DNA of 64,000 bases, from the NCBI GenBank assembly GCA_036785375.1, contig JAWMAR010000342.1, positions 1,674,001-1,738,000 on the forward strand, given 5' to 3'. The first letter of the stretch is position 1; every line of letters begins with the position of its first letter. Shown here in pieces: positions 503 through 63,195 of this stretch. The stretch comes from Leucoraja ocellata. Its lineage: Eukaryota. The notes below the pieces were generated by a model. That model was not told the DNA's origin. It was given only the letters and a program-made list of their open reading frames with translations, and ran no database searches. Both the position numbers and the translations under genes were made by a program.

Positions 503-698
503 AAAGATAGACACAAAGTACTGGAGTAACTTGGTGGGTCAGGCAGCATCTCTGAAGAATATGGATAAGTGACATTTCAGATCAGGAACTTTCTTCAGAC
601 CTATCCATGTTCTCCAGAGATGCTGCCTGACTGCTGAGTTATTCCAGCACTTTGTGTCTATTTTTATAAACCAGTATCTGCAGTTTCTTGTTTCTACA
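503..698. mobile_element. Penelope-derived foldback short element with a degenerate hammerhead motif on the minus strand (569-600)
   Basis: Arm agatagacacaaagtactggagtaac..gtcaggcagcatctctg is inverted against cagagatgctgcctgac..gagttattccagcactttgtgtcta. Minus strand of the centre reads gtCTGAAGAaagttcctgatctGAAAtgtcac. Confidence 0.75.
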
Positions 699-1109
699 TT
701 ATAAAGAGAAAGCACAACATATTTCGTGTAGGGTCTTATGTTGGGAGCCCTAGCACCTCTGCACTTTTCTGAAACAATTGTGTTCTGGATGAAACTAAGC
801 AGAAATCTTTCACCTTCCATTGTGCTTTGAAGCAGATCCAATTCACAATCCAATTCAATGATTTTGAGTGGGAGGAACTTTCATTTCGCCCATAAGGTCC
901 CTCAATTTGCAATTCCAAAACTAAGTCTGCCTAAATTTCTCACTGACCAGAGTGCTATATAAAGTAGAAAAATAAAACAATAACCAAAATGATAATTGAA
1001 CCAGTGTTGAGATTGGACAGAGTAATGACAATGAAACCACACGGGGAGTTGTTGGGTTAGTTAATCAAGGGAGTAAATAATAAGTAATTTGCTTTTCAAC
1101 TAAACCTAA

Positions 1110-1360
1110 ACACTCATGTAGTCTTTGAGCTTGAAAAAGGCCCTTCGGCCTAATTTGTCCACATAGACCAAATTTTATAAAAGAACTGGTCCCATTTGCC
1201 TGTGAATGACCCAGATCACCCTAAACCTTTCCTAGCCATGCACCTGCCTAAATGTTTTTTCACCATAGTCATTGTGCCTGCCTCTACACAGCTTCCTCTG
1301 TCAGTTTGTACAATTTACACACAATACTTTATGTGAAGAAATTGCCCCTTTGGAAAGATT
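1110..1360 (-). mobile_element. CR1/HER1-like LINE 3' fragment
   Basis: ggcccttcggcctaat...cccatttgcctg...ctaaacctttccta...gcctctacacagcttcctctg matches the CR1 3' ends at 20348 and 9655. Confidence 0.65.
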
Positions 1361-1381
1361 TAAAAGAGATCACACAATAGC

Positions 1382-1495
1382 ATATGCTGGAATCAGGATC
1401 AGAAACAAATTGCTGGTGGAACCCAGCAAATCAAGCAGCATCTGTGAAGGAAAGGAGCCGCTAACATTTCAGATCAAGACTCTGCATCAGGACAT
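1382..1495 (-). mobile_element. Older Penelope-derived short repeat
   Basis: atgctggaatc...tgctggtggaacccagc..caagcagcatctgtg...aacatttcagatcaagactctgcatcagg; same layout as the other copies. Confidence 0.6.
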
Positions 1496-3414: not shown

Positions 3415-3535
3415 CTGGTGATGAAGGGCCTTCAATCTGAAATATTAACTCTTTCTAAAGATGCTGCCTGACCCGCTGAGTATTTCCAACATTTTCTGTC
3501 TTTATCTCATATTTCTAATATCTGCGCAGTTTTTC
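3415..3535 (+). mobile_element. Older Penelope-derived short repeat
   Basis: tgatgaagggcc..ctgaaatatt...agatgctgcctgacccgctgagtatttccaacattttctg. Confidence 0.65.
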
Positions 3536-3840: not shown

Positions 3841-3963
3841 TAAGAAGGAACTGCAAATGCTGGAAAATCGAAGACAAAAATGCTGAAGAAACTCAGCAGG
3901 GTGAGGCAGCACCTATGGAGCGAAGGAAATAGGCAATGTTTCGGGCCGAAACACTTCTACAGA
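3841..3963 (-). mobile_element. Penelope-derived short element flanked by a 14-bp direct repeat
   Basis: catgaaaacatgtt at 3827-3840 and 3964-3977; body taagaaggaactgcaaatgctgg...actcagc...ggcagcacc...tttcgggccgaaacacttctacaga. Confidence 0.8.
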
Positions 3964-6900
3964 CATGAAAACATGTTCATTTTGGGCTGTAGGCACCCTT
4001 AATTGCTTTTGAGCATGAGAGCTGGAATGTCTAAATCTTGCAATATTACAGCATGGGCCTTTTCACCGAGTAATGATGGCTGTATACATATTATAATTAT
4101 TCATATGTACCACAAACAACAATGGCACTGCCAATATGGATTGCATAATTGATTCTGCTTCTCTTTCCATTGGACCAGTTACAATTTATCATATAATTTA
4201 TCAAAATACAGACTGTTAGAAAACTGTGGTTAGTGCACAGTCAAATTTTGTCACTTGTAATTTATCAACATATGCATCAATGCAGTTTGTAGGCAAATAA
4301 CTGGTAGGCAAAGCTTGTAGAATGGGGTTGGTGAGCAATTCCAATGTTTAATGACAAGTGGCACTCTAGTTAATAATCTTTCTGTTTTCAAAGTAAATAA
4401 TACTATAACCAGATTTTTATGGCCATAGTAACTGAAATAGATATAAATTAGTTGTTAGCTTTTTTACTTCTGAGCTGTGAGTGTGAATTTAAAATCTGAC
4501 TAGAATTCAAGCACATAATCTAGGTACATCATCTACATCTATTGTGATTTGCCTGTTTAAACGTTGATGCTGTAATGCAAAGACTGCAATGTTGCCATTC
4601 TGAAAGGACCAAATCAGTGGCTCAATCGCACTTTTTATCTCAACTTACTTTGTGACCACTTTTTATACTGACAATATTATTTTGATTTTAATATGGCTAA
4701 GCTATATAAAAAATGTTCTGCCTCACCAGTTGATCTCTCAAACAATTGAAGACAATATTACAGTGGAAGAATACTTCCCAGGAGGCAGCATGCATGAAAC
4801 AGTAAACAATAATCTATTAAAAAAAATCGATGTAATGATGTGATATTTAAAGTCACTGAAAGAATAATTGAAAAGTAAATTTGTAAAATAAAATACACAA
4901 AAGGACATAGTGAGTTGCCCTGTTTTTTTCTGCACAAAGTCACAAGTGAGTCATAAGTTAACATTCTCATAAATAAGAGTCCTTGTTTGTTCCACATTTA
5001 AATATAGAATACATGGTGTGTTTGGCAGTGGGCTTGAGTATTGCACTCTGACCTATGAGTCCAGGATTCAAATTTACCTCAGAGTGGAAAATCTTTTCTG
5101 CCTTTAGCATAAGTGTTCCATCAAGAAAAGCAGACTGTCAGATTTCAAGCCAAATACCAGTAAACCCACAGAACCAACTGGCACAAAAATGATAACCACA
5201 CTCAAAACAACACAAAATAAACAGGACTTTGTGCTGCAACAGGCTCTGGCATTACTAACCTAAAAACCCTTGATGTTAATTTGGAAAAATAAAGTTTTCT
5301 CAGAATGATGAGCATCTTTCCCACCCCTTTAAAACACAAGAACGTAGATGTATGCAATGCCAATGTAATTACAGATGTCTGGTGCTCCCATAATGAAATT
5401 TCAATTTAAACATGACTAGGACTACAATTAATCACCAATGTAAATTTTCTGAATGTATATAAGTGAGTCAAATTGAAGTTTCAACTCACTTGGAATCAGC
5501 AGGTCTCTGCCAAAACTCCTTTCAGAACCTCCTTTGTGGTACTGTGATGTCATGCCGCCAGCTTCCTGCTGTACGCTAGCTGAAATAGCGGGAATCAATA
5601 CTTCAAGTACAGAACTTTTTTAAGCACTTATAAAAGTGGTACCAAACCAAGAGTATTCATATGATGACTTTAAAAAAAAAATCAACATTAACATGGAATT
5701 CCACTCAGATGTCTCACAACTAAAATTGATGCTATGGTAATTTGCTACATTTACATGGTTTCTGTAAAAACACAAAGACAACTTAAATCAAGGGGCCCAA
5801 TGTTCTAAGTGCAACTGTCTCATGGGATGATAAACAGTGTACAATGTTGGTTTGTGTGATGTTATTGTATTCATCAACTTACCTAACCTTGTGTAAATAG
5901 AACATTCATATTTAAGATACCGCATACTTTATATTTGGGAATCTAGGAAAGAGCATGGCCTATATATTGTTCCACTCACTAAACGTCTACAGGATGATGT
6001 ACTGGGGACCAGGCTGTGTTGTTGACCTCCTCTATCAATATTCTATTGCACATCTTTCATCTGCCATGATGGAGTATCTCAGGTGGGTCTTGGTATGCTG
6101 ATTCATAGAGAGCTTGGGCAGGGGGCAGGGTATGACAGTGGGGGTGCTTTCTGATTAAGTGAGATCATGTGGCAGGAGCTGATAAGAAGGGTTGAAGAAG
6201 GGGAAGAAGCAAGACCATGGTTGGTTGGTTGGTGGAATGGAGGTAAGCAGTTGCAATTGGTTGAGGATGTGTTAAGGTCGCCCTTGGTTGATAGTGGGAG
6301 TCAGTGTTTTAATTAGGTTGCAAATTGGCTTTAGGGGACCCAAAAGACAGTCGCAAGTCACTGGAGGGGAAAGGCTTCTTGTGGGAATGAGAAGCAAACA
6401 GAATCCCATGGGAGGATTCAAACAGATACAGACCTTTATGTTAAAATAAAGCGTCTTGATGACTTGTGAAGGATTGTTTCGGCATCAGTGGCCTATATAG
6501 TTCCTCAGACAGGATCTGAATAAAAACATCTCACAACAGAGGCTCATTGTGAAAGTGCGATCCAATTAACCTCACTCTCCTGTTCTTCTCCTAAAAATCT
6601 TTTACATACTTATTCATTTCCATTTTGAGATGTTGTTATTTAAAGTGAAGATTCAATTCCAGATTATAACAATAGGTTGCATTAACAACCATGCTCTTCA
6701 TTTGGCATAATTATGTTAATTAACATTCTTTATTTGTATTGGTATTTTTGGCTACCTTAAATCTGTGTACTCCTGCCAGTTTCTCCCTATCGACTGCATT
6801 AATTTGGAAGGCTTTTATTGAGTCTCCTTAAATGTCTCTCCTCTGAGACACTCCCAGCTGTCTCAGTGAAAAGTCATCAACCTGAAACATTAACCCTACT

Positions 6901-9654
6901 TCTTTGTCTACAGATAATGCCTGGCCTTCTGAGAGTTTCCCAATATCTTCCAATTTCTCCGTTTAATGGAAAACTCCCAGATTCTCCATTCTCTCCATAA
7001 AAATCATTCTGTTCTTTCCTGATACTTTTCTGGTAAATCTCCAGTGCTTGACATTGTTTAAGTATAAAACATTTTGTGACATCTTGTAGCTGCAACATGT
7101 TAGTAGAGAAATGCAAATTCCTTCTTGTCAGTTTTTCCATTTTCTTTACTGTGGTTAAGACACGAGACAAATAAACTGAAAAATAATGCCTCAAGAAATT
7201 AAAATAAGATCTTGAGAAGCAAATGATGAATTTCAAATCATCTAAAGATCTCAAAAAAACATTATTATGTTGATTTCTATTCCATTTTTATTCTTCCTTT
7301 CAACTCTTAACTTGCACAGTAACAGCAATATTTTGAAGATGAACAGGATCTTGAAACTAGCTAATCCCACTTTTTTCGAATGGAATAAACATAATGGGAG
7401 ATTGCATAGTGTTTGCGAGATCTAGATCTCCAAACACAAAGATTAATTATTCTCTTCCTGCCATTCAACTTTCTTGTAAAATTCCTGAAGTGCATCTTGC
7501 AGATCCTAGTCATTTGCAAAGTTCTCCATTGAATGTTAATTAACAAAATTATGCCAATTACTGTATGTGCTCTAATATATTTATGACTGTGTTATTGCAT
7601 AGTGCTTTTTAAAATGAGGTAAATGGCATACTGACTTCAATTGACCTGAAAACATTTTTCACTTTTCAACTGAGAAAGTAAAACTCCAATTAATATTGGT
7701 CTTAAATGCTTTAGTCACCTCTAGGTTAGATTTATTTGTGGTGAATGACTTGTTTTCATTTTAACAGAGAAGGAATTATTTTAAACATAACATGGAAAAA
7801 AAAGCTATCACATCATAAACAAATGGCAAGTCTATTGTGAAATATTATAATAATTATAAGTATTATAAATTATGCTAGGATTCATGGAACTTATATGTTT
7901 AATCGTCATCTCATAACAGTGTTAATTTATTTTCCAAATATTGTATCCTAATTTGTGTATATATATTGGCAGATCCTGCTTTCCTTCAATTTCAGTGAAA
8001 GTAGCACTAGATCTTACAGACCAAAATGTAGACAGAACCACTAAAATATCTTGTATTTAATATGTTGGATTTGGAAGTGTACATCAAAAGAAAGTATGGT
8101 TTATAATATATTTAAATTTAATCACACACAATTCACTACATTGGACCATGAAAAAAAGGATAGATTTTTCAAAAAATTCAAATAATGCTCCTTGAACAGG
8201 CATCGGTAACGTTGCATACATTTTATATATTGGGACTAAAACAAAAATAAGGTTTGACCTATGTATACAACTTTAAAACATTTATTCGGGGTTGCACAAT
8301 TACCATGTGTGGGCTACTTCACTTCCATGCCCAAGAGAATGGTAGCAGCAATGTCAAAAAATCATGGTTAAACTTTGATTAAATTATTTTAATATTTATC
8401 TCATGCGATATAATTAATACTAACATGCCTGAGTAAACATTTGGACATAAAACCTGGCTTTGCTTGAGAGGCATATTAAATATAAAATGTGTTTAAGTAT
8501 TTCCAATATCCTAAACAGGAAATGGGATTTCATGAATTTAGATCAACAATCTTACTGCATGGCATGTATATGTCCTGTGAAGTTCAATGAATCTACAGTC
8601 TAACATTAAAAATGATTTGGAATAATCTTCATTAGTAGCAGCTTGTGTGGTATTTAATCAAATTCCCCAAATCTGTTGAAAAGCATCTGGTACTGGAGCT
8701 CTGATTATGAATGGTTGATAGTTATGTATTGTGCTAATCTCACACTGCTGTCCATTTTCTGCCTGCTACTGCGCTGGCATCCATCCTTGAACAATAAGCA
8801 CTTTAACACAAGCTGGCTATCCATCAAAGAATACTCTATCACCGATCTGATTTAGTAGCAGGATATATTATTATGGATGCCGGTTTCCAGGAAATGATCA
8901 TTCCTGTGAAAAAGAGATATTTTTAACCCCTAATGTTCATAAGCTGTATTTTAAACCGTTGAAGAACAATATGAAAACAAGATTCCCTTTTCAAACTGGA
9001 TAACTACTCATGGATGAAGGCAGTCAAACCATTTCTCCCTTTGCCAATTAACTTATCATTACTAATATTGTTTTATATTCCATTGCTGTGGGAATGCAAT
9101 TCCAATTCATAAGCTAAATGAAAATTCAATGTGCCAATGGATTACCAACTGATCTATTCTTTCTATCAGCTCCCCATCAGCTTTTACAGCACAAGATCGG
9201 CCTCAAACAATGCAAGCAAGGCACTCCACCATCCCCAGAATGCTTCCACATTTATCAAGCAATTTATTAGTCACAAAAAATTGGGAGCTGCATAAATTTG
9301 AAGTGTTGCATCAACTTAAGGTGTTTTCTTGCCTGGGAGTGCTAAATTTACTTTAATGCAGTTTTAATATATGAAACAGAATTCTGCATTCAGACCTGAA
9401 GCACAGATCAAAACATACATCAAATAAACTATCTTATATAGATGGGATTAAGAAGTTATGCACACATAAAGTATGTGCTGTTATTACTGAGAGACCATCC
9501 TTCATTAAAATTTAGAACTAGACATTACATAGTTCCCTCTAAAATGCATCCGCATTGGGACCATATTTTATACTGTGTATTAAATGATATTCCACTGGCA
9601 TTCCACTCCCATCCATTAGACATGGCTCTATCTTGAAGACAGCTGGTGTATGAC

Positions 9655-13781: not shown

Positions 13782-14654
13782 AAAATTATAAATTGAGACT
13801 CTTGAATTAAAATTCTGGTATGATTTAACCAATTTGAAGGTTGGAACTTGATTTGACCCTACCCATGTGACAGCTTTCTGGCACAGGCGACCCTGTTCTT
13901 AAACTACTATTTTATTTGAGCAAATACCAATATTGTTTTCCCTAACTTTACTGGCAATTGTGTTTTAAGTCAGCATAATGTCACATATTTTAAGCAACCT
14001 TTTCAAAATAATAAGAAAAGGGAAATGTTCAACTTGGGAGCATTAACATAACTTAATATTATTTTCCACTGCTGAGCTTGTTTGACAGATAGGATACATT
14101 TATTAGTAAATGCCATAAGGTGAGCTATTATGGAATATACATTTATAAATTTGTTTCTAAATACATCAGGCTTCAATATAATTATGCAAAATGAATTGGA
14201 GACTTGTCATTTTTAAGTGATCTATTGCCTGTAGATATCTCGAGTCTAGAAATATTTCTGTTGTGTGGTATTTATTGCTGAAATATTTACATAAGCAAAC
14301 TTCTGGTCTTGTTCCACACCTGCATGGACAGTAATCATCTCACCTGTGAAGTAGATGGTGGACACCATCTTCTCTGCAGAATGATTCCTTAAGCGAGTGG
14401 GTGTGGAGAACCGCTTCATGAAGGATGGGCAATACGAAAGTTTCTACTTCCCTGACAATCACTGCAGCAAATAACCACCCATTCCTCCCACTGATTTGTA
14501 GCTCTCCGCTGCCTTTGCTACAACTTCTGGGTTTAGCATTCAGCTCCCTTTACCTCCATCTCTCACTCCATTCATCTCCCAGTTTGAATTTCCTCACTGC
14601 AGACTGAGTGATTAAGCCTTGCCAAATAGAGATGACCTTGTTGGCAATCTGATT

Positions 14655-14745
14655 CAAACTGCTGGAGGAACAGCGGGTTGTATAGCATCAGTGGAGTCAA
14701 AGGGATCGCCAACGTTTCGGGTTGAGACCTTACATCGGTATTGAG
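14655..14745 (-). mobile_element. Penelope-derived short repeat (degenerate hammerhead motif)
   Basis: tgctggaggaacagcgggt...gcatcagtggag...aacgtttcgggttgagaccttacatcgg. Confidence 0.6.
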
Positions 14746-14862: not shown

Positions 14863-15245
14863 CATAGAAACATAAAAATAAGGTGCAGGAGTAGGTCATT
14901 CGGCCCTTCGAGCCTGCACCGCCATTCAATATGATCATGGCTGATCATCCAACTCAGTATCCTGTACCTGCCTTCTCTCCATACCCCCTAATCCCTTTAG
15001 CCACAAGGGCCACATCTAACTCCCTCTTAAATATAGCCAATGAACTGGCCTCAACTACCTTCTGTGGCAGAGAATTCCAGAGATTCACCACTCTCTGTGT
15101 GAAAAATGTTTTCCTCATCTCGGTCCTAAAAGATTTCCCCCTTATCCTTATACTATGACCCCTTGTTCTGGACTTCCCCAACATTGGGAACAATCTTCCT
15201 GCATCTAGCCTGTCCAACCCCTTAAGAATTTTGTAAGTTTCTATA
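14863..15245 (-). mobile_element. CR1/HER1-like LINE 3' end (young)
   Basis: ORF 14954..15217 (RTRGHSIRIRG...FFTQRVVNLWNSLPQ...FKRELD) and a catagaaa-type tail. Confidence 0.9.
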
Positions 15246-15434
15246 AGAGTATATAAAGAGTATATATAGTTTCTATAAAAGTTTCATATCCATGTACCTT
15301 TCTAAGTATCTAATCATTCATTTTTAATCATTCCTCTTAGGTTTCCTGGAAGCTCATTCCATATACACATCACCCACTGTGAAAATATTGCCCCTTAGGC
15401 CCTTTTAATTCTTTCCCCTCTCACCTTCTATCTA

Positions 15435-16875
15435 CAGTGCATTCAGAAAGTATTCAGACCCCTTCACTTTCACACATTTTGTTACGTTACAGCCTTATTC
15501 TAAAATTGATTAAATTCTTCTTTTTTTTTAAATCATCAATCTACACACAATACCCCATAATAAAAAAGCGAACAGGCGTTTAGAAATTTTTGCAAAGTAA
15601 TTAAAAATAAATAACTGAAATATCACATTTATATACCGGTAAGTATTCAGACCCCTCACTCAGTACTTTGTTGAGGCACCTTTGGCAGCGATTACAGCCT
15701 CAAGTCTTCTTGGGTATGACGTTTCAAACTTGGCACACTTGTATTTGGGTAATTTCTCCCATTCTTCTCTGCAGATCCTCTCAAGCTCTGGTTGGATTCA
15801 CAGCTATTTTCACATCCCTCCAGCGATATTCGATCGGGTTCAAGTCCGGGCTCTGGCTGGGCCACTCAAGGACATTCACAGACTTGTCACAAAGCCGGGG
15901 TGGAAGATTGCAACCTTCACGTGGTCCGCCCTGTTTCAACTAATGCAATCAACTCGACGTGCACAAACGGAAGATCAAATAGAACAAGTTGTCCAACAAC
16001 TTTAGGCTGTGCACGCCACATGAAAGAAGAAGAAGTAACAAAGCCACTCCTGCATTGTCTTGGCTGTGTACTTAGGGTCGTTGTCCTGTTGGAAGGCAAA
16101 CCTCTGCCCCAATCTGAGGTCCTGAACGCTCTGGAGCAGGTTTTCATCAAGGATCTCTCTGTACTTTGCTCCGTTCATCCTTCTCTCGATCCTGACTAGT
16201 CTCCCAGTTCCTGCCACTGGAAAAATCCCCACAGCATGATGCTGCCACTACCATGCTTCACCATAGGTATGGTATTGGTCAGGTGATGAGTGATGCCTAG
16301 TTTCCTCCAGACATGACACTTGGCATTCAATCGTGGACCAGAGAATCTTGTTTAGGTGTCTTTTAGCAAACTCCAAGCGGGCGGTCATGTACCTTTTACT
16401 GAGGAGTGGCTTCCGTCTGGCTACTCTACCAAACAGGCCTGATTGGTGGAGTGCTGCAGATATAGTCGTCCTTCTGGAAGTTTCTCCCATCTCCACAGAG
16501 GAACTCTGGAGCTCTGTCAGAGCGACCATCGGGGTTTTGGTCACCTCCCTGACCAAGGCCCTTCTACCCGACTGCTCAGTTTGGCCAGGCGGCCAGCTCT
16601 ATCAAGAGTCCTGGTGGTTTCAAAGTTCTTCCATTTCTTCGGATAATCAATGGAAACAGGATGCACCAAAGCTCAATTGTGAGTGTCATAGCAAAAGGTC
16701 TGAATACTTATGTAAATGTGATATTTCAGTTATTTATTTTTAATTACTTTGCAAAAAATTCTAAACACCTGTTTTCACTTTTATATTATGAGGTATTGTG
16801 TGTGGATTGATGATTAAAAAAAATGAATTTAATGTAGAAAAAGTGAAGGGGTCTGAATACTTTCTGAATGCACTA
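15435..16875 (-). mobile_element. Tc1-family DNA transposon (IR/DR type), defective transposase
   Basis: TA|cagtgcattcagaaagtattcagacccc...ggggtctgaatactttctgaatgcact TIRs with an internal DR near 15641. Transposase remnants: GRVARRKPLL and GTGRLVRIE...[12 protein letters not shown]. Confidence 0.95.
15897..16037 (+). mobile_element. Short retroposed insert with (GAA)n tail inside Tc1
   Basis: TSD acaaagcc at 15889-15896 and 16038-16045; ends in gaaagaagaagaag. Confidence 0.75.
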
Positions 16876-17461: not shown

Positions 17462-17598
17462 AAATGTTTAGGAAGGAACTACAGATGCTGGTTTAAACTG
17501 AAGAGAGACACAAAAAGATGGAGTAACTCAGTGGGACAGGCAGCATCTTTAGAGAGAAGGAATGGATGACGTTTTGGATCGAGACCGTTCTTCAGACT
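17462..17598 (-). mobile_element. Penelope-derived short element (hammerhead with GAAA changed to AAAA)
   Basis: Minus strand reads agtCTGAAGAacggtctcgatccAAAAcgtca. Confidence 0.8.
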
Positions 17599-17739
17599 CT
17601 TCTTCACATAGATGACATACATCAGTGGGCCCAACACCAATCCCTGTCGTATATCACTAGCCACAGGCTTTCAAACTATGAAACAACCCTCAAACACCCT
17701 CTGATTCCTTCTAGCTAGCTAAGGGAGCATAGAGGCAAG

Positions 17740-18719: not shown

Positions 18720-18952
18720 GTATTTATGGAATTCCCTGCCACAGAGGGCAGTGGAGGCCAAGTCACTGGATGGATTTAAGAGAGAGTTAGATAGAGCTCT
18801 AGGGGCTAGTGGAGTCAAGGGATATGGGGAGAAGGCAGGCACGGGTTATTGATAGGGGACAATCAGCCATGATCACAATGAATGGCGATGCTGGCTCGAA
18901 GGGCCGAATGGCCTCCTCCTGCACCTATTTTCTATGTTTCTATGTTTCTATG
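18720..18952 (+). mobile_element. CR1/HER1-like LINE 3' end
   Basis: LWNSLPQRAVEA...FKRELD; tail (tttctatg)n. Confidence 0.9.
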
Positions 18953-19163: not shown

Positions 19164-19480
19164 CAGCACGGTGGCGCAGCGGTAGAGTGCTGCCTTACAG
19201 CGCCAGAGACACAGATTCAATCCTGACTACACGTGCTATCTGTACGGAGTTTACACATTACGTTCTCCCTGTGACCACATGGGCTTTCCCTGGGTACACC
19301 GATTTCCTCCCAAACTCGAAAGACGTACCGGTTTGTAGGTTAATTGGCTTCGGTAAAGATTGTAAATTGTAAATTGTCCCTAGTGTGTAGGATAGTGCTA
19401 GTGTGCAGGGATCGCTGGTTGGCGTGGACTCGGTGTGCCGAAGGGCCGGTTTCTGCGCTGTACCTCTAAACTAATCAAAT
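19164..19480 (+). mobile_element. HE1-type tRNA-derived V-SINE
   Basis: A box gtggcgcagcggtagag, B-box remnant gattcaatcc, V-domain (gtttcctcccaaactcgaaagacgt), CR1-like tail. Confidence 0.9.
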
Positions 19481-19539
19481 AAGTGCAAAGAGCAAGGACT
19501 TAGTGCTGTGCAGAAACAATGATTAACAACGTTTGAACA

Positions 19540-27600: not shown

Positions 27601-27699
27601 CTGCCTCTATTACATGGATTATTCATTGGCTTGGCATGAAACAGAAACTGCTGAAAGTATTCAACAGAATCTTTGGAGAGAGCGGCAGAGTTAACGGGG

Positions 27700-43939: not shown

Positions 43940-44249
43940 GACGGCACAGTGGCGCAATGGTAGAGTTGCTGCCTTACAGTGCCAGAGACCCGGGTTCGAT
44001 CCTGACTACAGGTGCTGTCTGTAGGGAGTTTGTAAGTTCTCCCCGTGACCTGCGTGGGTTTTCACTGGTAGTTCCGGTTTCCTCCCACACTCCAAAGATG
44101 TACAGGTTTGTAGGCTAATTGGCTTGGTAAAATTGTAAATTATCCCTAGTGATTGCAGTATGCGGGGATCGCTGGTTGGCATGGATTCGATGGGCCAAAG
44201 GGCCTCTTTCCGTGCTATATCTCTAAACTAAACTAAAACTAAACTAGAC
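43940..44249 (+). mobile_element. HE1-type V-SINE
   Basis: gtggcgcaatggtagag...gggttcgatcc A/B boxes, V-domain, (aaact)n tail. Confidence 0.92.
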
Positions 44250-45600: not shown

Positions 45601-45922
45601 TACAAGCGCTCTTCTGCTCTATTGAATATAGACGGTGCTGCCATGGGCAATGTAAGGAACAGCTAATACAAAGTCAATGTAGCATTCTAATACTTACATT
45701 CACTAGAAAGCTGACATATTGACATATTTGTTTACCAAACTATCCATTTTAAGTATATACCAAGCTTCTAGGATTCAAAAAATTGGAGTGGATTATGCAT
45801 GGCCAAATCATTTTCAAAAGAGCTTTTAATTTCCTCTGTCCTCACTTCATATCAAGAGGCATGTTCTTGGGCACACACCAACATACTTCCGATTAAGCTT
45901 GTTTACTCTTTTTAACTCTTAA

Positions 45923-46016
45923 GAGTCTGAGGAAGGGTCTCGACCCGAAACATCACCCATTCCTCTGCAGAGATGCTGCCTATATCACTGAGTTACTCCA
46001 GCATTTTGTCTCTATC
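45923..46016 (+). mobile_element. Penelope-derived short element beginning at a hammerhead motif
   Basis: gagtctgaggaagggtctcgacccgaaacatcacccattcc...agatgctgcc...ctgagttactccagcattttgtctctatc. Confidence 0.8.
45924..45958 (+). ncRNA. Minimal type I hammerhead ribozyme motif
   Basis: CTGAGGA(45927-33)-a-GGGT ctcg ACCC-GAAA(45947-50)-c-ATC-acc; perfect stem II, AUC cleavage triplet. Activity untested. Confidence 0.6.
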
Positions 46017-46189
46017 TCAAGAGAAAATATTGTCTTTAAAATATCAACAAATTGCTCTCCCAGAAGAGTATATCCAAGAAGTTTGCATCCTGCTCAGAAG
46101 GATCTTGGAATCTTGGAACATCTCAGAAGGATGTTGCAATGCCTCAGCGTTGCTATATATTAAAAAGTTCTCTACTGAAAAAATAGGAC

Positions 46190-46581: not shown

Positions 46582-46810
46582 AGGGCCAGTCCCACTTTCA
46601 CGACCTTATTTACTCGTGGACATTTTTCATCAGGCTAGAAAAACGCCCCGACCTACTTGATGCCATGAGCCATGCCTACGATTAGCATCACAACCTTCCT
46701 ATGACCTACCTACGACCTCCTACGACCTGGTGACGACCATGCTGCGAGTATGAGTCAAGGGCAAACTCGGCAGAGGTCGTGAATTAGGTCGTGAAAGTGG
46801 GACAGGCCCT
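46582..46810. mobile_element. PIF/Harbinger-type MITE
   Basis: TTA|agggccagtcccactttcacgacc...ggtcgtgaaagtgggacaggccct|TTA. Confidence 0.9.
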
Positions 46811-46974
46811 TTAGGTTGCGACTGCAAACCTCGGTATTTGCACCAGTGCAGAATGTTGCAAATACAGTTGTGGCAGCAGGAGAGTTCTGTAATTAACGTG
46901 TTGTGATAAAAAGAGGAAAGTGTTCTCTCCAGCAATCAGAGGTGTGGAATGAGCAACAGATATTTAGTTTTTTT

Positions 46975-47660
46975 CATTCAAGGGACTTGGGCTTCACAGG
47001 CTGAGCTAACATGTAATTGTCCATCCCTAACTGCCCTTGAGAAGGTGGTGGTGAGCTGCTTTCTTGAACTGTTGCAGTCCTTGAGATGTGAGTATACTCA
47101 GCATGCTAGTAGGAAGAGAGCTCCGGGATTTTGACCCAGCGATAGAAATGGAATGCAATATATTTCCAAAGTGCCTGTAAAACTGCAATAAGAAATAATA
47201 TCATTGTTCCGTTCCTAGTACATATGACAATTATGAGTCCTGAAGTCAGGATAGCCCATGCCTTGGAGGGCAACTTCTGGGTGATGGCGATCCATGCCTT
47301 TGGTGCCCTTGTTCTTCTAGGTGGTAGAGGTTGTGAGTATGAAAGGTGCTTTCTAAAAAGTCTTAGCGTGTTGTAGTGCAATCTATAAATTGTAAAAACC
47401 TGCTGCTTTGCATCAGTAATGTTATGAGTTAATAGTTATGGAGGGTATCAAATCGGATGCTATGACCTGTACAGTGTCAGGCTTCTTGAGTGTTATTGAA
47501 ACTTCACTCATCTAATGCAAGTGGAGAATATTCCATCACAATCCTGACTTGAAGATTACAGATGGTGAACAGGCTTTGGGTAGTTAGGAGGTGAGTTATT
47601 CGCTACAGAATTCATATTATCTGACTTGCTCAGGTCTTCATGTGGATGTCTCAAACAAAT
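46975..47660 (-). mobile_element. Old CR1-like LINE 3' region
   Basis: ccatccctaactgcccttgagaaggtggtggtgagctgctttcttgaactg...ttggagggcaactt...gcttcttgagtgtt. Confidence 0.65.
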
Positions 47661-49952
47661 TCCTGAAGTATCCACCTGGTAATATTTGTCCAGGATTGAA
47701 CACTCTATGACCACCCCCTGGTTTTTATTGGTTAATCAATTATACTTTCATTGCGAGATTACACCGGCTTAATTACTGGGGTACAGAGGCAGAAACGTTT
47801 TACTGGTTTTACTTAAACTGAAATATATTACATCCATTACTTTACCCCTATCAAGCTCCATCCTCAGGAGTGTGCTTTATCCTGGGTCTTTCTTGCTTCA
47901 TTACAACGGAACATTTGCCTTTATACAAGCAATAATATTTCTTCAATCACTAACGATCAGAAGTGTCATTATATGAAGATTACTTCACTGGCAATACTCT
48001 GTTATCAGTACGAGTCCAGTGGAAGAATTTCTGCAGCAGTGGCAGTATAAATGGATGTTGTGCATTAATCCAATTAATTAAAGCACTGTTTCTGACATTT
48101 TAAAAGGTTTAACTTATCAAGCAAATTTATTAATAGCACCAATTAAAATATTATCATAGAATATAAACAATTTTAAAATATTGTGCTATTTGGGGATGCA
48201 AAAAAAATGTGTTTGACATGGGATGGCATATAGTGACAAACCCAATGAGCTTTAATTATGGCTGGTTGAACAATTCTAAAATGTAAATATTTAGTTGTAA
48301 ATTCATATATCTTGTGTCCTCAATAACTATTAATTCACTAATTGAAGTTCCTTGTAAAAAAACTTGGGATTTTCAGTTTACATACAGTTCACTTGTGAGT
48401 AGTATGAGATGCTTCAATAGGCTATTAATTGATCCTACGCCATCACTGCGGCTCTTTGGGCAGCAGTAAATATGTTCACTAGCACAAGTGTAATATTTTA
48501 TTTTCACTTGAGTCACTCATCAATAAAATAGCCAGTGAAAGGACTGTGTATATCCACCTACTAAAAAAAATGCTATTGGTTGCTTGGTGGTAATACATCA
48601 TTGTCATATTCATGCAGATCGTAAAGAATGAAAAATGTCCATCATGCTGAGAATCCAGGCTATTTATTTACTCTAAGGATTATTCCGAGTCAATGGGCTG
48701 AAAATCATTAACCTTACAGCTCATCAAAGACAATTTTAAATGATTAGAAAAGACGACAATTACAATGGCTTGTTAAAAAAATATATGAAATCCCACCAAA
48801 TATTCTGAAACCTATCTAAACTCCACCTTGTGGTGCACTGAAATTGGGCCTTTATCTCTGTGAACTGTGCAGATAGATGCCAATAAATAACTGAACACAT
48901 TTGGAGTGACTTGGGAATAGATTGTCGTGGCAACACTGACTTTACTGCAGAAAAACAGTAAATGTTATTTATCTCAAACTCAAGACAAGGCATCACACAC
49001 TTTAGGATGCAATATTAATCCAATCAAAAATCAATTTCCCTTATCAGTGTTGGCGTAGGTGAGAAATTTTAGGAAATAGTAGAGGTGGGGAACATTAAAT
49101 TTCAGTGAATTGGAACTGAATCTATGTGAAAGATAAACAATGAGACCCAATGGCCCACAATAAAATAGAAAGTTGACACTGAGCACATAACTCAAGCCCA
49201 CAGAAAAAAAATGCTGCAGATGCTGGAATTATGGAATATAAACATAAATAACTCAAATGTCTAGTGCACCTGGAATGCTGCTCCCAAAGGGGGAATGGCA
49301 TTGACTCTTGCACAACTGAGGTGAAAATTACTCCCCAGGGAAATTATTGGTTAAATTTGCCCAGTGACATGAAATAATCAGAAATAGCCATTATTGCATT
49401 TCATTCTGAAACATATTAGGTCATTGAATTCAGGACAAAAATATCAAAAAGCACCAATACACAGTAAAGCAGATTCAGAATTTAAAATTTGCCCCACAGA
49501 TGCTACCTGACCTACTCAGTATTTCTGGTACTGCCAATGACCTCTGCGCCCTTTACAATTTACATAATTATTTCCATGTGGAAACCTTTTTCTTTCCAAA
49601 ACTTGAAAACGTTACTGCCAAAAAAACTTGAGGTCAATGGTAGTAAATGTGCCATATGTCAACATTTGCTCTAAATCTCATTACATTGATTAAATAGAAT
49701 ATATTTCAATGTTGACATGATAGTGTGTTTAGCACTACATGATGATTTTCTGAGGGTGCCAGTATTAATGGGATATGTGGATTAAGAAAACCACTTAATA
49801 ACAAAGTTGGGGGCATCGTGGTGTTTATTTCAAAAATTATTTGCTCCATAGTTGAAGAGCTTTAAATTAGATTATGTTTGGGTGGTAGATGACAGAAAAT
49901 CATATAGACACGGCAAAAGAGGAAGGCAGAGTACTTCCAAATAGAACAGTAA

Positions 49953-50490
49953 AGGGCCTGTCCCACTGCGGTGACCTAATCCACGAGTTCTGGCGAGTTT
50001 GCCCTCGACTCGAACTCGCAGCATGGTCGACACGAGGTCCTAGGAGGTCTTTGTAACTCTCCTTCATGCTCGAGGGTTGTCCTCGCGTACTCGAGGCCTC
50101 AGCTAGGTTGCGGCGTATTTTTCAACATGTTGAAAAATGCCCGCTAGTACAAAAAGGTCGCCATGGAAAAAAATTGATACTTTTTTTACTCGTAAGCTTA
50201 GTCGAAGTAGGTCGGCATGTTATTCGTAGGTAATCGAGGGTAGTCGAAGATAATCGAAGGTAGTCATAGATGGTCACCAGTCGAAGGGAGATCAAAGGAG
50301 ATCGAAGAAGGTCATCTTCACTCTTAATTATTTGAAGTCCAAGTTTCCCGTAGCTAGTCGAAGCTAGTCTTCAACATAGTCGAAGGACGACTTCTACATA
50401 GTCAAAGGAGGTCTTCAACATGACATTTTTTCAAACTCACCTAAACTCTTCTAAACTCACAAATTAGGTCGCCGCAGTGGGACAGTCCCT
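49953..50490. mobile_element. PIF/Harbinger-type MITE with an internal ~10-bp tandem array
   Basis: TAA|agggcctgtcccactgcggtgacctaat...attaggtcgccgcagtgggacagtccct|TAA; (tagtcgaagg)-like units at 50195-50415. Confidence 0.92.
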
Positions 50491-51019: not shown

Positions 51020-51280
51020 ATGGGTACACAGCAGTCAGTGTGAAGAACAGGAACACAACAGTTAATGTGAAGAAAATGAAGAGTGGAAACAATAATTAGT
51101 GTAAAGAGATTAGACAACGGGAACACAACTATCAGAGTGAAAATACTGGAGAAAGGGAACAGATGATGTGAAGACACTGGCGAGTGGGGAACACAATGGT
51201 CAATGTGAGAAGACTAGAGAGTGGGAACACAACAGGCAGCATGAACATAAGTGAGAGTGGGAACAAAGCAGGGAACACAA
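51020..51280 (+). repeat. Degenerate ~33-35 bp minisatellite
   Basis: Recurring gagtgggaacacaac...gtgaaga units. Confidence 0.7.
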
Positions 51281-51425: not shown

Positions 51426-51588
51426 TTGTAGAAACATAGAACTGCAGATGCTGGCTAATACACAAAAGGACACAAAGTGCTGGAGTAACCCAGCATGTCA
51501 GGCAGTATCTCTGGAGAACATGGATGGGTGACATTTCGGATCAAAACCTTTCTTCAAGTTACTGAGTTATTCTGACACTTTGTGTCCT
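51426..51588 (-). mobile_element. Penelope-derived short element
   Basis: tgtagaaacatagaactgcagatgctgg...gacacaaagtgctggagtaacccagc..gtcaggcag...gtgacatttcggatcaaaacctttcttca. Confidence 0.8.
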
Positions 51589-51929
51589 GGAGTTTGTATG
51601 TTGTTGGACGATATTATTCAGAAAGGTTATCCTGGAATCTATCAAGCTTGGAGAGGCAAGGCAACAATGAAAGTCTGTTTACGCTGTGGCTACTTCCTCC
51701 GACTTGAAACATATGCACCCAAAGTTCTATAACTGTGTGGAAAGCAAGGTTCACAATATGGCTGCCTGGGATCACATGCGCAGATGGAAGTGAGAGACTA
51801 AACATAGCAAGGTCTGGGTATGCTATTTGTCAGTGGGACAAAATAAATGTCACTAATCCTGCAACTCCCTACTGGGATTATTTGATTGCAGATGGCAATA
51901 GACAAACTGACAGAGGGATCCATGATGTT

Positions 51930-53845: not shown

Positions 53846-54417
53846 AGCCTCATATGTCCATTTTTTCCTGTGTAAGGAAAATAGAGTTTCTGCTCTGAAA
53901 AGATGCAGAAGGCAGAGAATAAATGGTGCACCAATTGGTTCAGTAGCTCAAGGAAGTTCTTCAATCTGTGTTCTCTCCTCAAAGCTCAATGTTAGCAAAC
54001 TGAACTCCGAATGCGATGATTCTGGGTCAAAGCCTACTTTAAAGACATGAGCACATAATCTGGGGATAGTGATAAACCATGGTTCTCGAGTCACAAGTGA
54101 CTGTTAACTTCTGCTCTTTAAGTCCTTTGCATTAGGATAAGAAGTGTTATTGTACTAGATTATATTTCACATTGTACTTTAGGTCACCAATTAAAGTATT
54201 GAAATTATTTTAATAAATGTGTGCATTTCTCTGATAGACTGCTGTATTTGGATGTTGAGTGGGGTGCTACATGGGACATACAGTAGTCATAGGTTTAGTT
54301 TACTATTGTCTTTTGTACCGAGGTACAGTGAAAACTTGTTGTTGTGTGCTATCCAGTCAAAGAAAAGACTATACACTATTACAATCAAGCTGTCCACAGT
54401 GCACACATTAAGTATAA

Positions 54418-55595
54418 AGGGCCTGTCCCACTTACGCGACCCTTACAGGCGACTGCCGGCACCCGTGATAGGTCGCCAAAATTTTCAACATGTTGCTACG
54501 ACTCTTTGGAGACCTCTCACGACCATAGGAGAACTCTCACGACCATACTTGTATTGTATTCAATTTATTGTCATTGTCTCAATTTGAGACAACAAAATGA
54601 ATTTTCCTTACAGGCAGTATCATTAAAAAAAAAATCACAAAGAAATTATAAAAATAAATAATAAATAAATAATAAAACATATTAAAAATAAAATTGAAAT
54701 TGAATTAAAATTAAAAAAAAAGCACAAATACAGAAGTCCACGACACAACATAACATAAATGGCACCCAGGTGAGGACGGCACCATAGTCCAGCCAGCCTC
54801 CCCTCCGTGTTCATCCGTGGACGGGGCCTTCCAAGCACCCGCAGTCGCCGCCCCGGGTGGCCCGATGTTCAGGCCCTCACGCCGGGCTGGTGGAACGCCG
54901 ACGCCGAACCCCGACGGTGAGCAGCCTCCTCCTCAGCGGCCCGGATCTCCCGATCAGCCGCCTCCCGCTGCCGGAGTCTGCAGCTCCCGAGTCCGCAGGT
55001 CGAGCCGGGCAGAGTCACAGGACCCCGCGTTGATTAGTCAGCGCCGCCCGCGTTGGGAGCTCCGCAAACCGCAGCTCCAGGATGTCGGTGCAGCAGGTCC
55101 AGCACTCCGGGCTCCAAACGGCGACCCCCGGTAAGGCATCACCAGCCCCGCGATGTTCCAGCGCTGTCCCGCCGCTGCTGGAGCTCCGGTCGATCCCGGC
55201 AGGAAAGGCCGCGCCAATCCAGGTAGGTAGGCCGCTGTGGGGGGGGGACGCGACTCGAATAATAGTCGCGTCCTCACCAGGAAGCGGCCGAAGGACGGTA
55301 TCCCCCGCACCGTGCCCTCTTCCCCCACATGAAAACACCAAAAAAACACAAAAAAATACACTTTTACAGGCTGTATGGTCATGAGAGGTCTCCTATGGTC
55401 GTGAGAGGTCACCTGCGACATGTCATCAGGGGTCGCCTGTATGGTCGTGAGAGGTCTCCTATGGTCGTGAGAGGTCTCCAAAGAGTCGTAACGTCTTTCT
55501 GGCCGCCGCTGAATTTTCACCATGTTGAAAATTTCAGCGACCTATCATGGGTGCCAGCAGTCGCCTGTAAAGGTCACGCAAGTGGGACAGGCCCT
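54418..55595. mobile_element. PIF/Harbinger-type MITE (long foldback, 20-bp internal repeats) with a nested retroelement
   Basis: TAA|agggcctgtcccacttacgcgacc...ggtcacgcaagtgggacaggccct|TAA; arms contain (ctctcacgaccataggagac) units and their inverse. Confidence 0.92.
54549..55366 (-). mobile_element. GC-rich non-coding SINE-like retroelement with (caata)n tail
   Basis: Minus strand ends gacaatgacaataaattgaatacaatacaa; no credible ORF; interrupts the MITE between gaccatac and aggctgtatggtc. Confidence 0.65.
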
Positions 55596-55964
55596 TAAAA
55601 GGTATAACATTTAATGCAAGATAGAGTCTGATAAACTCCGATTAAAGATCTCCAATTAGGTAGATGGGAGGTCAGGACCACACTCCAGCTCTCTTGATTA
55701 ATGATGGTTGTCAATGTGTTTTCAAAGTCACATAAATGTGGATGTCACCGATTTAGTAGCAAGATCTGAATCAAGTGGTTGTTAGAAGTATGACCTTTCT
55801 GAAGGGGGGCTGAAAAGAAGCAATATTTACCTTCTCTGCAGGCATAAAAAATCTGATTGCAGCATTTAAAGAAGAGCACTCCCAGTATATTGAGCAGCAT
55901 TTAGTTGTCAATGAACTTCTAAAACAAAATATCTTCCAATTAAACTCATTGGTATCTTTGGAGA

Positions 55965-59179: not shown

Positions 59180-62100
59180 TTTGTGTAAGAAAACCTCCGT
59201 TTGATTTTAGGTAACTAACCTATGAACACCCACTCTTCTCCCCCCCCCATTCCCCCTCACCTCTCCTTCCACCAGCCGAGAGCTTCCAAAATACAGACAT
59301 CGCATTACCTGCCCCACCAAAGAGGAAAGAACATTCGATCATTGTTATACTACAAACAAGAACACATATCGCTCTGTTCCCCATGCGAGTCCAGGACTCT
59401 CTGAACATTGTTTAGTTCACCTTATTCCGACCTATAGGCAGAAACTAAAATCTGCTAAGCCCGTGGTCAGAACAATGAAAAGGTGGACAAGCGAGGGCAT
59501 TGAAAACCTACAATCTTGCACTGATTGGAATGTGTTCACTGCACTGATTGGAATGTGTTCAGGGAAGCAACCACAGGCCTCGATGAATATACAGACACCG
59601 TGACATCATAGGTCAGCTTTTGTGAGGACAGTTGCATTCCCACTAGGACCCGGATCAGGTTCAACAATGACAAGCCTTGGTTTACAGCAGAACTCAGACA
59701 GTTCCGACAGTCTAAAGATGCAACTAAATTTAAGGTAGCTCTTTCTTCCCAATAACCCTTTCTGGCTTAAGTCCTCCCTCCACCACCTCCAGTTTAAATT
59801 CCATTTGGAATGTTTTGGAGGACCAAGAAACCAAGAACCAAGAACGAAGAGGCCTACAGGAGCGGGGATGCAGACCTCTACAGGCAGGACCAGGACAAGC
59901 TGAGGAGGAATCAGAGTTGTCAAGGAAAGGTACTCAGAGAAGTTGAGGAGCAAGTTCTCAGCTAATGAAATCTTCAGTGTGGAAGGGCTTACAAGAAATC
60001 ACCAGCTACAAGAGGAAAACCCTCCGCTCTGTGGACAGTCGCCAGCTGACCAACGACCTGAATGAGTTCTACTGCAGGCTCGATAGACAGAAACATAAAC
60101 CCAGTACCCCCTCCCCCACCCACTCCTCCCCAATCACCACTTCACACCTACTCACAGCTTGACTCCAGTCTGCAAAGACTGGACCTCACCGGCCACCGAA
60201 TGGTGAACGAGGTCTGATTGACCTGGACGATAACACGTTGGCCTGGCTCGCCCCAACGGAGCTGCAGGTCTATATGACAGAAGAAGGACCCTTCCCCATG
60301 ACCAGTCTGCAAAGGCTGGACCCTTCCCCAATCACCACTTCACACCCACTTATAGCCTGACTCCAGTCTGCAAAGACTGGGCCCTCGTCCACTACCCACC
60401 CCCTCCTTGCTGCCCATCATCACTCTGGCCACTTCTCCATCACTAACAATAGAAATTGAGGAAGTGGAGAAGCTATTCATGAGACAGAAAATCCGGAAAT
60501 CTCTAGGACCGTTTCCCCCTCTACCCTCAAGCTCTGTGCCGAACAACTGGCACCAGTCTACACAGACATTTTCAACCAGTCCCTGCAAACATGTACTGTC
60601 CCTGCCTGCTTCAAAGTCTCCACTATTGTTCCTGCACCCAAAAAGCCAATGATTACTGGTCTTAATGACTACAGGCCTGTCGCACTGACCTCTGTAATCT
60701 TGCAGACCGTTGAAAGACGTGCTGGGCCAGCTGAAAAATATCACAAATCCCCTGCTGGACCCTCTGCAGTTTGCATATCAGGCCAATAGATCAGTGGATG
60801 ATGCAGTCAACCTGGGCCTGCACTTCAACCTCCAGCAACTAGACTGCCAGGGGACCTATGCAAGGATCCTGTTTGTTGATTTTAGCTCTGCATTTAACAC
60901 CATTGTGCCAGAGCTACTACACTACAAAGTCTCCCAGTTGACTGTACCTGAACCCCTCTGTCAGTGGATCACCAGCTTCCTGACAGACAGGAAGCAGCAT
61001 GTGAGGCTGGGAAAGCACATCTCGGACCCGCTGACTCTCAGTATATGAGCACCGCAAGGCTGCGTACTCTCCCCTCTCCTTTACTCTCTCTTCACCAATG
61101 ACTGCACCTCCACAGACTCCTCTGTCAAGCTTCTCAAGTTTGCAGACGACACAACCCTGATTGGACTGATCCAGGATGAGGAGGAATCTGCCTCCAGACA
61201 GGAAGTGGCATAGCTAGCGTCCTGGTGCCATTGCAACAACCTGGAGCTCAATGCTCTTAAGACAGTGGAACTGAGTGCCGACTTTAGGAGAGCTCCCCCT
61301 CCCTTCCCCCCATTCACCATCAACAACACCACAGTCACATCTGTGGAGTCATTTAAGTTCCTTGGAACCATCAAAAGACAATAGGTGCAGGAGTAGGCCA
61401 TTCGGCCCCTCGAGCCAACACCGTCATTCAATGTGATCATGGCTGATCATTCAAAATCATTAACCCGTTCCTGCCTTCTCCCCATATCCCTTGACTACGC
61501 TATCTTTAAGAGCCCTATCTAGCTCTCTCTTGAAAGTATCCAGAGAACTGGCCTCCACCGCCCTCTGAGGCAGAGAATTCCACAGACTCACAACTGTGGA
61601 AAAAAGTGTTTCCTCATCTCCGTTCTAAATGGCTCACCTCTTATTCTTAAACTGTGGACCCTGGTTCTGGATTCCCTCAACATCAGGAATATGTTTCCTG
61701 CCTCTAGCCTGTCCAAACCCTTAATAATCTTATATGTTTCAATAAGATTCCTCTCATCCTTCTAAATTCCAGAGTATACAAGCCCAGCCGCCCCAATCTC
61801 TCAGCAGTCCCGCCATCCCGGGAATTAACCTTGTAAACCTACGCTGCACTCCCTCAATAGCAAGAATGTCCTCCCTCAAATTATGGGACCAAAACTACAC
61901 ACAATACTCCAGGTGTGGTCTCACCAGGGCCCTGTACAACTGCAGAAGGACCTCTTTGCTCCTATACTCTTCTTATGAAGGCCGGCATGCCATTCGCTTT
62001 CTTCACTGCATGCTGTATCTGCATGCTTCCTTTCATTGACTGATGAACAAGGACCCCCGGATCCCATTGTACTTCCCCTTTTCCCAACTTGACACCATTT

Positions 62101-62970
62101 AGATAATAATCTGCCTTCCTGTTTTTGCTACCAAAGTGGATAACCTCATATTTATCCACATTAAACTCCCACTGCCCACTCCCCCAACCTGTCCAAGTCA
62201 ACCTGCATTCTCATGGCATCCTGCTCCCACTTCACACTGCCATCCAGCTGTGTGTCATCTGCAAATTTGCTAATGTCACCTTGAATCCCTTCATATAAAT
62301 CATTGATAGATATTGTAAATAGCTGCGGCCCCAGCACCGAGCCTTGTGGTACCCCACTTGTCACTGCAGGGACCTGAAATGGGAGGGCACCATCGGCTCC
62401 ACAGTCAAAAAGGCCCAACAGAGGATGTACTTCCTGCAGCAGCTGAGAAAACACAATCTGCCACAGGCAATGATGGTCCAGTTTTATACTGCCATCATAG
62501 AGTCTGTCCTCACCTTCTCCATCATGGTCTGGTTTGGCTCAGCCACCAAGCACGACATCCGGAGGCTGCAGCGCATCGGTCGATCAGCCGAGGACGCTAT
62601 TAGCTGCAACCTTCCCACCATCGACAAACTACACTGCAAGGACCAGGAAGCGAGCGGATAAGAACATCTCCGACCACTTTCACCCTGACCACAAACTCTT
62701 TGAAGCATTTCCCTCTGGAAGGCAACTCCGGACTGTCAAAGCCAGACATAAAAACTGCTTTTTGCCATGAGCAGTAACTCTACTCAATAGCCAAAAGTAT
62801 GTAGCCTCCATTTGCTCTGGTATTTTATTTCATTCTTCACACGTTTAAATTATAATATTTTATTCTTAATTGTTTACTGTATATCGTGTTGTTACTTGCG
62901 AGCAAAGCACCAAGGCAAAATCCTTGTGTATACATACATGGATAATAAAATGTATTCAATCCAAAATGTA
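59180..62970 (+). mobile_element. Long Rex1/Babar-like LINE (EN end, RT, 3'UTR), frameshifted, with nested inserts
   Basis: [19 protein letters not shown]...[17 protein letters not shown] (60710..61048), KFADD near 61140, KKAQQRMYFLQQL...IESVLTFSIMVWFG (62344..62661); tail aataaaatgtattcaatcc. Confidence 0.92.
61374..62367 (-). mobile_element. CR1/HER1-like LINE nested in the Rex1-like LINE
   Basis: VTSGVPQGSVLGPQLFTI.INDL...SKFADDT (62161..62454), FNVDKYEVIHFG (61962..62201), and the CR1 3' end at 61374. Confidence 0.92.
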
Positions 62971-62974
62971 TTCA

Positions 62975-63195
62975 ATTCCCAACTCTTCCATCCTTATCTC
63001 ACACCTTTTTTTTTAAATCTTTTGCCTTTGTCCACACATCTACCTATCCTGCATCAACCTTTCACTTGCCAGGCTTTGGCTTGCCCATCCTCTCTTCCAG
63101 CTTTCTTCTCTCTCACCACAATCAATCCTAACCCGAAACGTCACCTATCCATGTTCTCCACAGATGCTGCCTGACCCCAGCACTTTGTATCTTTC
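62975..63195 (+). mobile_element. Penelope-like 3' terminal region
   Basis: Pyrimidine tract, then acccGAAAcgtcacctatccatgttctccacagatgctgcctgacc; the 5' half of the hammerhead is missing. Confidence 0.7.

Follow-up and report, generated by a model that had tools for sequence, protein, structure and literature searches.

Minimal type I hammerhead ribozymes in the pseudo-long terminal repeats (pseudo-LTRs) of Penelope-like elements (PLEs), together with thousands of scattered, truncated copies, have been known since 2014, fishes included, and are reported in fish Xena, Poseidon, and Neptune elements (Cervera and de la Pena 2014, PMC4209133). These minimal motifs show no cleavage as monomers and low cleavage as dimers (PMC4209133); dimer cleavage by Luense et al. 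is cited in PMC6765202, and a preprint gives cleavage in one of nine dimers tested (bioRxiv 10.64898/2026.07.22.740005). For PAc, a Poseidon element of Anolis (Frangieh 2024, PMC11167929), internal initiation of reverse transcription has been shown at two sites, about 85-92 nt past the cut, and the sequence between these sites makes up the tail of the insertions. The RNA that is copied is mainly uncleaved, and the ribozyme needs protein in order to cut. Insertions of PLEs have 5' truncation, inverted arms, and a tail of 30-40 bp, often at one end (PMC8557442). Animal retrozymes are 150-450 bp tandem repeats expressed as circular RNA and were originally defined with canonical hammerheads (PMC7229834); according to the preprint, retrozymes derive from Penelope pseudo-LTRs, and truncation has left most PLE insertions with one terminal repeat only. 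Here we analyze a dense family of short PLE-related repeats with such a motif in 64,000 nt of the skate Leucoraja ocellata (GCA_036785375.1, contig JAWMAR010000342.1, positions 1,674,001 to 1,738,000, forward strand), a stretch referred to below as the window.

The analysis indicates that the copies are probably dead-on-arrival pseudo-LTR fragments of an autonomous Penelope-like element that encodes a GIY-YIG endonuclease and comprises several subfamilies, and that they probably arose by internal initiation and run-off cDNA synthesis. The chondrichthyan instance adds a taxon to the known distribution: neither sharks nor rays appear in the results, the discussion, or two supplementary files of PMC4209133, and we found no report in the open-licence literature. 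Statements attributed to PMC4209133, PMC8557442, PMC6765202, PMC7229834, PMC2377424, 10.1101/443036, and the preprint are drawn from excerpts of those sources.

Copies and motif of the hammerhead unit

The original prediction listed at least 13 copies, and all of them are present at the given places in a profile search, its minus-strand coordinates denoting the low end of the motif. The profile, seeded with seven copies, gives 20 window matches at E ≤ 1, against zero for the reversed sequence, and a longer model made from 18 copies gives 22 matches at E ≤ 0.05. With intervals set by hand, the family comprises 17 loci and 2,886 of the 64,000 bases, about 4.5% of the window, which bears out the high density that had been claimed. 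A generic hammerhead descriptor has four matches versus 0.50 expected, a count that none of 100 shuffles reaches, and three of the four are family copies. The hammerhead is absent among the two weak Rfam matches at E ≤ 1 in the window, a result that neither supports nor excludes the minimal motif. The copies are listed here with strand and, in brackets, the evidence; offsets refer to core nucleotide C3, and the tail is an optional 3' stretch.

498-600 (-): arm A of an inverted insertion, starting 2 nt before C3, with the full core at 571-598 and no tail
599-691 (+): arm B of the same insertion, starting at the first base past the predicted cut, with a tail; 2 nt are common to arm A
1372-1493 (-): old copy with tail (divergence, longer-model match)
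3417-3533 (+): old copy with tail (divergence, longer-model match)
3841-3963 (-): short copy from motif start to tail end, with a 14-nt exact target-site duplication, 3964-3977/3827-3840
6867-6952 (+): very old copy, 39% diverged (longer-model match)
14643-14741 (-): old copy without tail (divergence, longer-model match)
17472-17607 (-): short copy with tail inside a CR1-like reverse transcriptase frame, preceded by roughly 9 additional nt similar to the start of the motif
19537-19700 (+): C-terminus of a GIY-YIG endonuclease, with a frameshift near 19610, ending at the stop codon (tblastn, Pfam)
19701-19803 (+): pyrimidine-rich 3' untranslated region (UTR) leading into the motif, with a pyrimidine fraction of 0.84 just upstream of it
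19804-19890 (+): youngest copy, 7% from the consensus, with full core, ACGT palindrome, a G-G mismatch in helix II, and no tail
19914-20039 (+): old copy with tail, 37% diverged, adjoining the young copy and not its tandem dimer
27636-27772 (both strands): old head-to-head inverted pair, both arms starting a few nt from the cut (E 3e-4 and 4e-6)
30509-30632 (+): short copy with tail, starting at the motif (end inspection, longer-model match)
35106-35299 (-): inverted arm with about 68 nt of 3' UTR, motif, and tail (longer-model match)
35297-35696 (+): main arm with a remnant of the GIY-YIG end, 3' UTR, and motif, without tail (tblastn, DNA identity, model)
37374-37484 (+): copy with tail, most of helix II missing (alignment, longer-model match)
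37755-37853 (-): copy starting in loop II (alignment, longer-model match)
45922-46020 (+): short copy with full core, perfect helix II, decayed palindrome, and no tail
49207-49255 (-): tail-only fragment (longer model, E 0.0025)
49488-49531 (+): fragment from downstream of the motif (longer-model match)
51435-51590 (both strands): copy with tail at 51435-51559 (-), preceded by a short inverted arm at 51561-51590 (+)
63030-63200 (+): tailless copy that lacks the first half of the motif and has pyrimidine-rich sequence upstream

The consensus proposed originally matches the majority sequence of the copies. It has the full type I core with an extra base after A9, a 4-bp helix II, a GUC triplet, and a 2-bp helix I, while helix III is replaced by an ACGT palindrome, so that the assignment as a minimal type I hammerhead with palindromic helix III holds for the consensus. 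Core, helix II, palindromic 15.1-16.1, and NUH triplet are together complete in none of the 17 single copies; all core nucleotides are kept in 3 of the 17 aligned copies, and none of these three also has an intact helix II and palindrome. The pseudo-LTR hammerheads of PMC4209133 are alike in the core, in the unpaired base between A9 and helix II, in G10.1-C11.1 and palindromic 15.2-16.2, in the lack of a real helix III, and in occurring mostly as scattered singles from truncated elements. The skate helices II and I, of 4 and 2 bp, are shorter than those of the S. mansoni families, which have 7-8 and 4-5 bp, whereas the D. virilis hammerhead likewise has a 2-bp helix I (PMC4209133).

The expected pairs are found in 71% of the cells in register, as compared to 19-40% when the strands are slid. 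Covariation in helices I and II, whose absence from stem II the original prediction had named among the outcomes that would speak against it, does not exceed that of shuffles (score 0.176, with 327 of 500 shuffles as high), the power of this test being low because the copies are decayed and are not source elements, and RNAalifold finds no consensus structure on 18 copies. Of the 51 cells at the three CpG positions, 31 carry a change, in each case of the deamination type (to TG, CA, or TA), and the non-CpG changes number 16 of 140 in the core and 40 of 278 downstream (Fisher p = 0.45). The copies decay neutrally after insertion. In-register pairing, neutral decay, and the lack of excess covariation together indicate that the structure was present in the ancestor and is not maintained in the copies.

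The calculated energy of the active dimer is -6.1 kcal/mol and that of the dimer minimum -27.1 kcal/mol, tertiary contacts and protein being outside the model; helix II is calculated at only -4.8 kcal/mol. When the two best natural copies and the majority of six young copies are folded, helix II has a probability of about 0.01 with the downstream pyrimidine stretch and 0.84-0.98 without it. We attribute this behavior to the pairing of the purine-rich core with that stretch; at 19806-19850 and 45927-45970 the core is predicted to pair with the pyrimidines just past the cut, blocking helix II. Such predicted pairing could represent an off state or mere base composition, and we do not take it as evidence of regulation. 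A single pattern match in a bacterial genome record (L001, 3647-3694) was rejected as a chance hit, with an nhmmer E of 0.25 and no PLE protein match.

The Penelope-like carrier element

The unit is continuous with a PLE reading frame in the copy at 19537-19890, where the end of the frame is followed by a stop codon, the pyrimidine-rich UTR, and then the motif, which begins about 105 nt past the stop codon at 19700. In tblastn searches, 19537-19697 has 52-75% identity to shark and ray proteins with reverse transcriptase and GIY-YIG domains, with E down to 2e-13, and the last 53 or so codons in the window match the C-termini of proteins carrying RVT_1 and GIY-YIG (Pfam). The predicted Penelope origin and the GIY-YIG link near 19540 are thereby confirmed, the latter for 19540-19697. 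The second link, predicted near 35300, is weak in tblastn (E 0.2-4.7), but the DNA there has 68% identity over 94 nt to 19614-19707 (E 4e-5).

A full HMMER scan with the window frame gives 14 protein matches, eight of which were inspected: six share the C-terminus, mostly in mis-joined gene models, and two are unrelated repeat proteins. Three other matches are TIL or Ig-repeat proteins by Pfam and were set aside. One mis-joined model led to 25 longer proteins, which at E ≤ 0.01 match the window solely at 19537-19697; the named ones are mostly from Rhincodon, Stegostoma, Chiloscyllium, and Hypanus, in agreement with the elasmobranch setting proposed from the letters of the window. Word-index protein searches with the window's own pieces have no match, and the protein atlas has none above 0.78. 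In a Stegostoma gene model, the endonuclease is followed by a peptide that corresponds to the motif translated in the same frame, and the arrangement of endonuclease and motif is therefore probably common to sharks. Four fish gene models (P0007, P0008, P0012, and P0021) have a fused Penelope endonuclease C-terminus, and these fusions are probably annotation errors from an abundant repeat. Expansion of Penelope has been reported in sharks (10.1101/443036).

In P0016 and P0021, the closest full relatives, the reverse transcriptase and the endonuclease are separated by a Cys-rich linker, a region absent from the window. This linker marks the Neptune and Nematis clades (PMC8557442), and Neptune and Poseidon elements are found in vertebrates by the preprint (bioRxiv 10.64898/2026.07.22.740005); from these two points, the carrier element probably belongs to the Neptune clade, and it would thus differ in clade from PAc. 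Neptune elements are alike in the order of reverse transcriptase and C-terminal GIY-YIG, in the linker (as seen in the relatives), and in insertions that are 5'-truncated, have inverted arms, and bear at one end a tail of 30-40 bp (PMC8557442). The skate element differs in being known from terminal fragments, the 64-kb window having no full-length copy with a reading frame between two pseudo-LTRs.

Ends of the insertions and origin of the short copies

The insertions show textbook Penelope anatomy, namely 5' truncation, inverted arms, and an optional tail. Four inverted arrangements are present (600-/599+, 35231-/35605+, 51557-/51561+, and the old pair at 27636-27772), and in the first two the tail is found on one arm only. 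At 30490-30512, next to the 30511+ copy, the other strand resembles a short, damaged motif start, and this copy may be a fifth inverted junction. The 3' ends fall into two groups, one near 60 and the other near 95 nt past the cut (92-98 nt for the long ends), the tail being the 30-38 nt difference; counted from C3, they lie at +88 in 45925+ (weak duplication), at +120/122 in 3964- (14-nt duplication), and at about +126 in 17597- (CR1-like frame). The motif is internal and uncut in the copies, 60-98 nt lying downstream of the cut site. PAc is alike in having the hammerhead at the pseudo-LTR junction, 3' ends about 90 nt past the cut, an optional tail, and uncleaved RNA as the template, the last of which would apply to the skate copies by inference (PMC11167929).

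Target-site duplications are clear in 1 of 20 arms and plausible in one more. The clear one, at 3841-3963, matches in 15 of 16 positions, the best of 300 random controls reaching 12; the candidate 9-nt duplication at 45922-46020 matches in 8 of 9, a score at chance level, but it lies exactly at both ends. Both ends of the copy at 17472-17607 are marked by its CR1-like host frame, which runs over 17664-17605 and resumes near 17470 (tblastn 17424-17323, E 8e-4). When the flanks of seven copies are joined, blastn finds a spanning repeat in none of them, the CR1 host of 17597- being visible by translation only.

For the 5' ends we counted 14 young arms, with offsets assigned by eye, leaving out the older arms because their upstream sequence cannot be judged. 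Six of the 14 start at -3 to 0 of C3, four extend 68-310 nt upstream, three start elsewhere inside the unit, and one (599+) begins with the very base that follows the predicted cut; none ends at the cut. Under a uniform model, P ≤ 0.00075 for six starts in any 4-nt window, and three of the six motif-start ends are bounded independently, by duplications or by the CR1-like frame. The ends are thus not random relative to the motif, contrary to another outcome that the original prediction had named as speaking against it, and the predicted proximity of element ends to the ribozyme stands for a cluster at the 5' start of the motif, but not for the cleavage site. This cluster lies some 30 nt upstream of the cut, and its position is therefore not determined by the ribozyme. 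The start of 599+ could represent cDNA of cleaved RNA, although it is explained equally well by 2-nt microhomology at the inverted junction, the two bases being helix I partners, and a single case decides nothing. Just before the motif is a sequence that we take to resemble the initiator consensus. The D. virilis Penelope has a downstream promoter element (PMC2377424); similar letters in the skate unit lie about 3 nt out of register, and such an element is hence not claimed.

In the explanation that we favor, the element's own protein would nick the DNA and start reverse transcription internally at two sites, each of which a tandem transcript would contain twice, once per terminal repeat. Initiation in the 3' repeat would yield ordinary 5'-truncated copies that reach the UTR or the open reading frame (ORF), while initiation in the 5' repeat would yield a run-off cDNA of 90-130 nt that stops at the 5' end of the RNA, just before the hammerhead, this end being either a transcription start or a processed end. 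Run-off to an RNA end before an uncut hammerhead suggests that the template would be mostly uncleaved RNA. Any role of the ribozyme would lie in the source elements, where it would act as a dimer, probably aided by protein.

Several points weigh against this explanation. The upstream UTRs differ between subfamilies, so that loss of similarity alone is no proof of an end; long copies from different loci have only 1-10 nt in common upstream, with scores within the random range. Only three 5' ends have independent markers, and one of the duplications among these is weak. The 5' offsets were set by eye, and the uniform null is crude. Internal initiation is known from a Poseidon element, not from Neptune, and a short copy that was itself transcribed and re-mobilized would look identical. 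The mechanism, moreover, is proposed from the sequence of the window alone.

In another reading, the 90-130 nt unit has turned into a non-autonomous element resembling short interspersed elements (SINEs), which would bring its own start site and the signals at which reverse transcription starts, be transcribed independently, and be copied in trans by the Penelope protein. Non-autonomous PLE derivatives have been described (PMC8557442), and most arms here are devoid of UTR or ORF sequence, only 4 of the 14 young ones reaching upstream of the motif; the sharp 5' ends and the target-site duplications would also fit, as would a five-copy clade (599+, 600-, 37388+, 51557-, and 63126+) that has no ORF-linked member in the window. 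We nevertheless consider it unlikely. On the tree, short copies fall among the long ones, albeit with low support, 3964- being sister to the ORF-linked 19804+ (support 0.81). Within the five-copy clade, 63126+ is preceded by pyrimidine-rich sequence, as the long copies are, and the internal promoter is putative. It is less likely still that the 5' ends reflect a splice acceptor, or stalling or fold-back of the reverse transcriptase at helix I, instead of an RNA end. A pyrimidine tract ending in CAG does lie directly before the motif in the long copies, and in the D. virilis Penelope the 3' end of an intron is the 5' end of helix I (PMC4209133), but a spliced template should leave a common upstream exon, and the duplication-bounded copies have none. 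Also in favor are two inverted junctions, 600- and 51557-, at which pairing is possible between the strands of helix I or with a 6-nt look-alike; the low stability of helix II, however, makes for a weak stall signal, and the four young arms that extend further upstream argue against acceptor and stall alike.

The original prediction favored a separate, ribozyme-delimited system akin to retrozymes, in which units are cut out by the hammerhead, circularized, and reinserted. The skate units share with animal retrozymes their short length, lack of coding sequence, type I hammerhead, and relation to PLE pseudo-LTRs (PMC7229834), and tandem retrozymes are reported from one chondrichthyan genome (bioRxiv 10.64898/2026.07.22.740005). 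The consensus has the complete minimal core, 599+ starts exactly at the cut, and the old pair starts near it. Retrozymes are tandem, however, whereas the skate units occur as scattered single copies or in inverted pairs, and their motif is minimal and uncut: none of the 25 tandem-repeat rows in the window is an array of the unit, and the only adjacent pair (19804+/19914+) differs in age, with 7% versus 37% divergence. No copy spans from cut site to cut site, none of the 17 has an intact ribozyme, there is no excess covariation, and the start of 599+ has the alternative origin in microhomology given above. With the Penelope-type arms and tails and the interleaving of copies on the tree, these observations make a separate retrozyme system very improbable, and the dead-on-arrival pseudo-LTR fragments of a Penelope-like element are retained as the best explanation.

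Other repeats and meaning of the family

The window has further repeats. A 380-codon open stretch at 31155-32297 (-), with RVT_1 and an ALKBH8_N-like tail, looks like a well-preserved piece of a long interspersed element (LINE), presumably of the Rex1/Babar type. At 15560-16784, 76-nt inverted repeats about 1.07 kb apart surround transposase-like frames, which we take to be a Tc1 transposase remnant. A second dispersed family of about 300 nt has four copies (19170-19475, 33795-34075, 36834-37069, and 43967-44232), one of which adjoins the GIY-YIG fragment; we assume a resemblance to a tRNA-derived fish SINE. Numerous 3' ends of a CR1-like LINE are present, at 14863-15283, 18722-18944, 22782-22995, 29909-30275, 32910-33144, and 61371-61747, and one pair of them is 96% identical over 232 nt, indicating recent activity. 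A 174-codon frame at 23878-24402 (+), with a weak zf-RVT match, probably comes from the 3' region of an L1/Tx1-type element. At 54417-55596, 20935-22771, and 46714-50049 lie paired inverted repeats of 77-110 nt, spaced by 1-3 kb, which may be non-autonomous DNA transposons. A 23-nt minisatellite at 39560-39897 and a degenerate array of about 34 nt at 51023-51266 are both unrelated to the hammerhead unit.

With one locus of the hammerhead unit per 4 kb, the genome would hold hundreds of thousands of copies, if the window is typical. Evidence of cleavage in vivo is reported neither in the excerpts of PMC4209133 nor in PMC11167929, and the main text of the latter says nothing of genomic 5' ends peaking at the motif start. 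It is conceivable, though we put it forward only tentatively, that the short copies are a germ-line record of the 5' ends of Penelope RNA, with a major class that was uncleaved, ending before the hammerhead, and a minor class that was cleaved, ending at the cut. If this were true genome-wide, the ratio of the two classes of 5' ends would be in-vivo evidence of whether, and how often, the hammerheads cut; and if the 5'-end pattern holds across the genome, the copies would test both internal initiation in the 5' repeat and cleavage in vivo from sequence alone.

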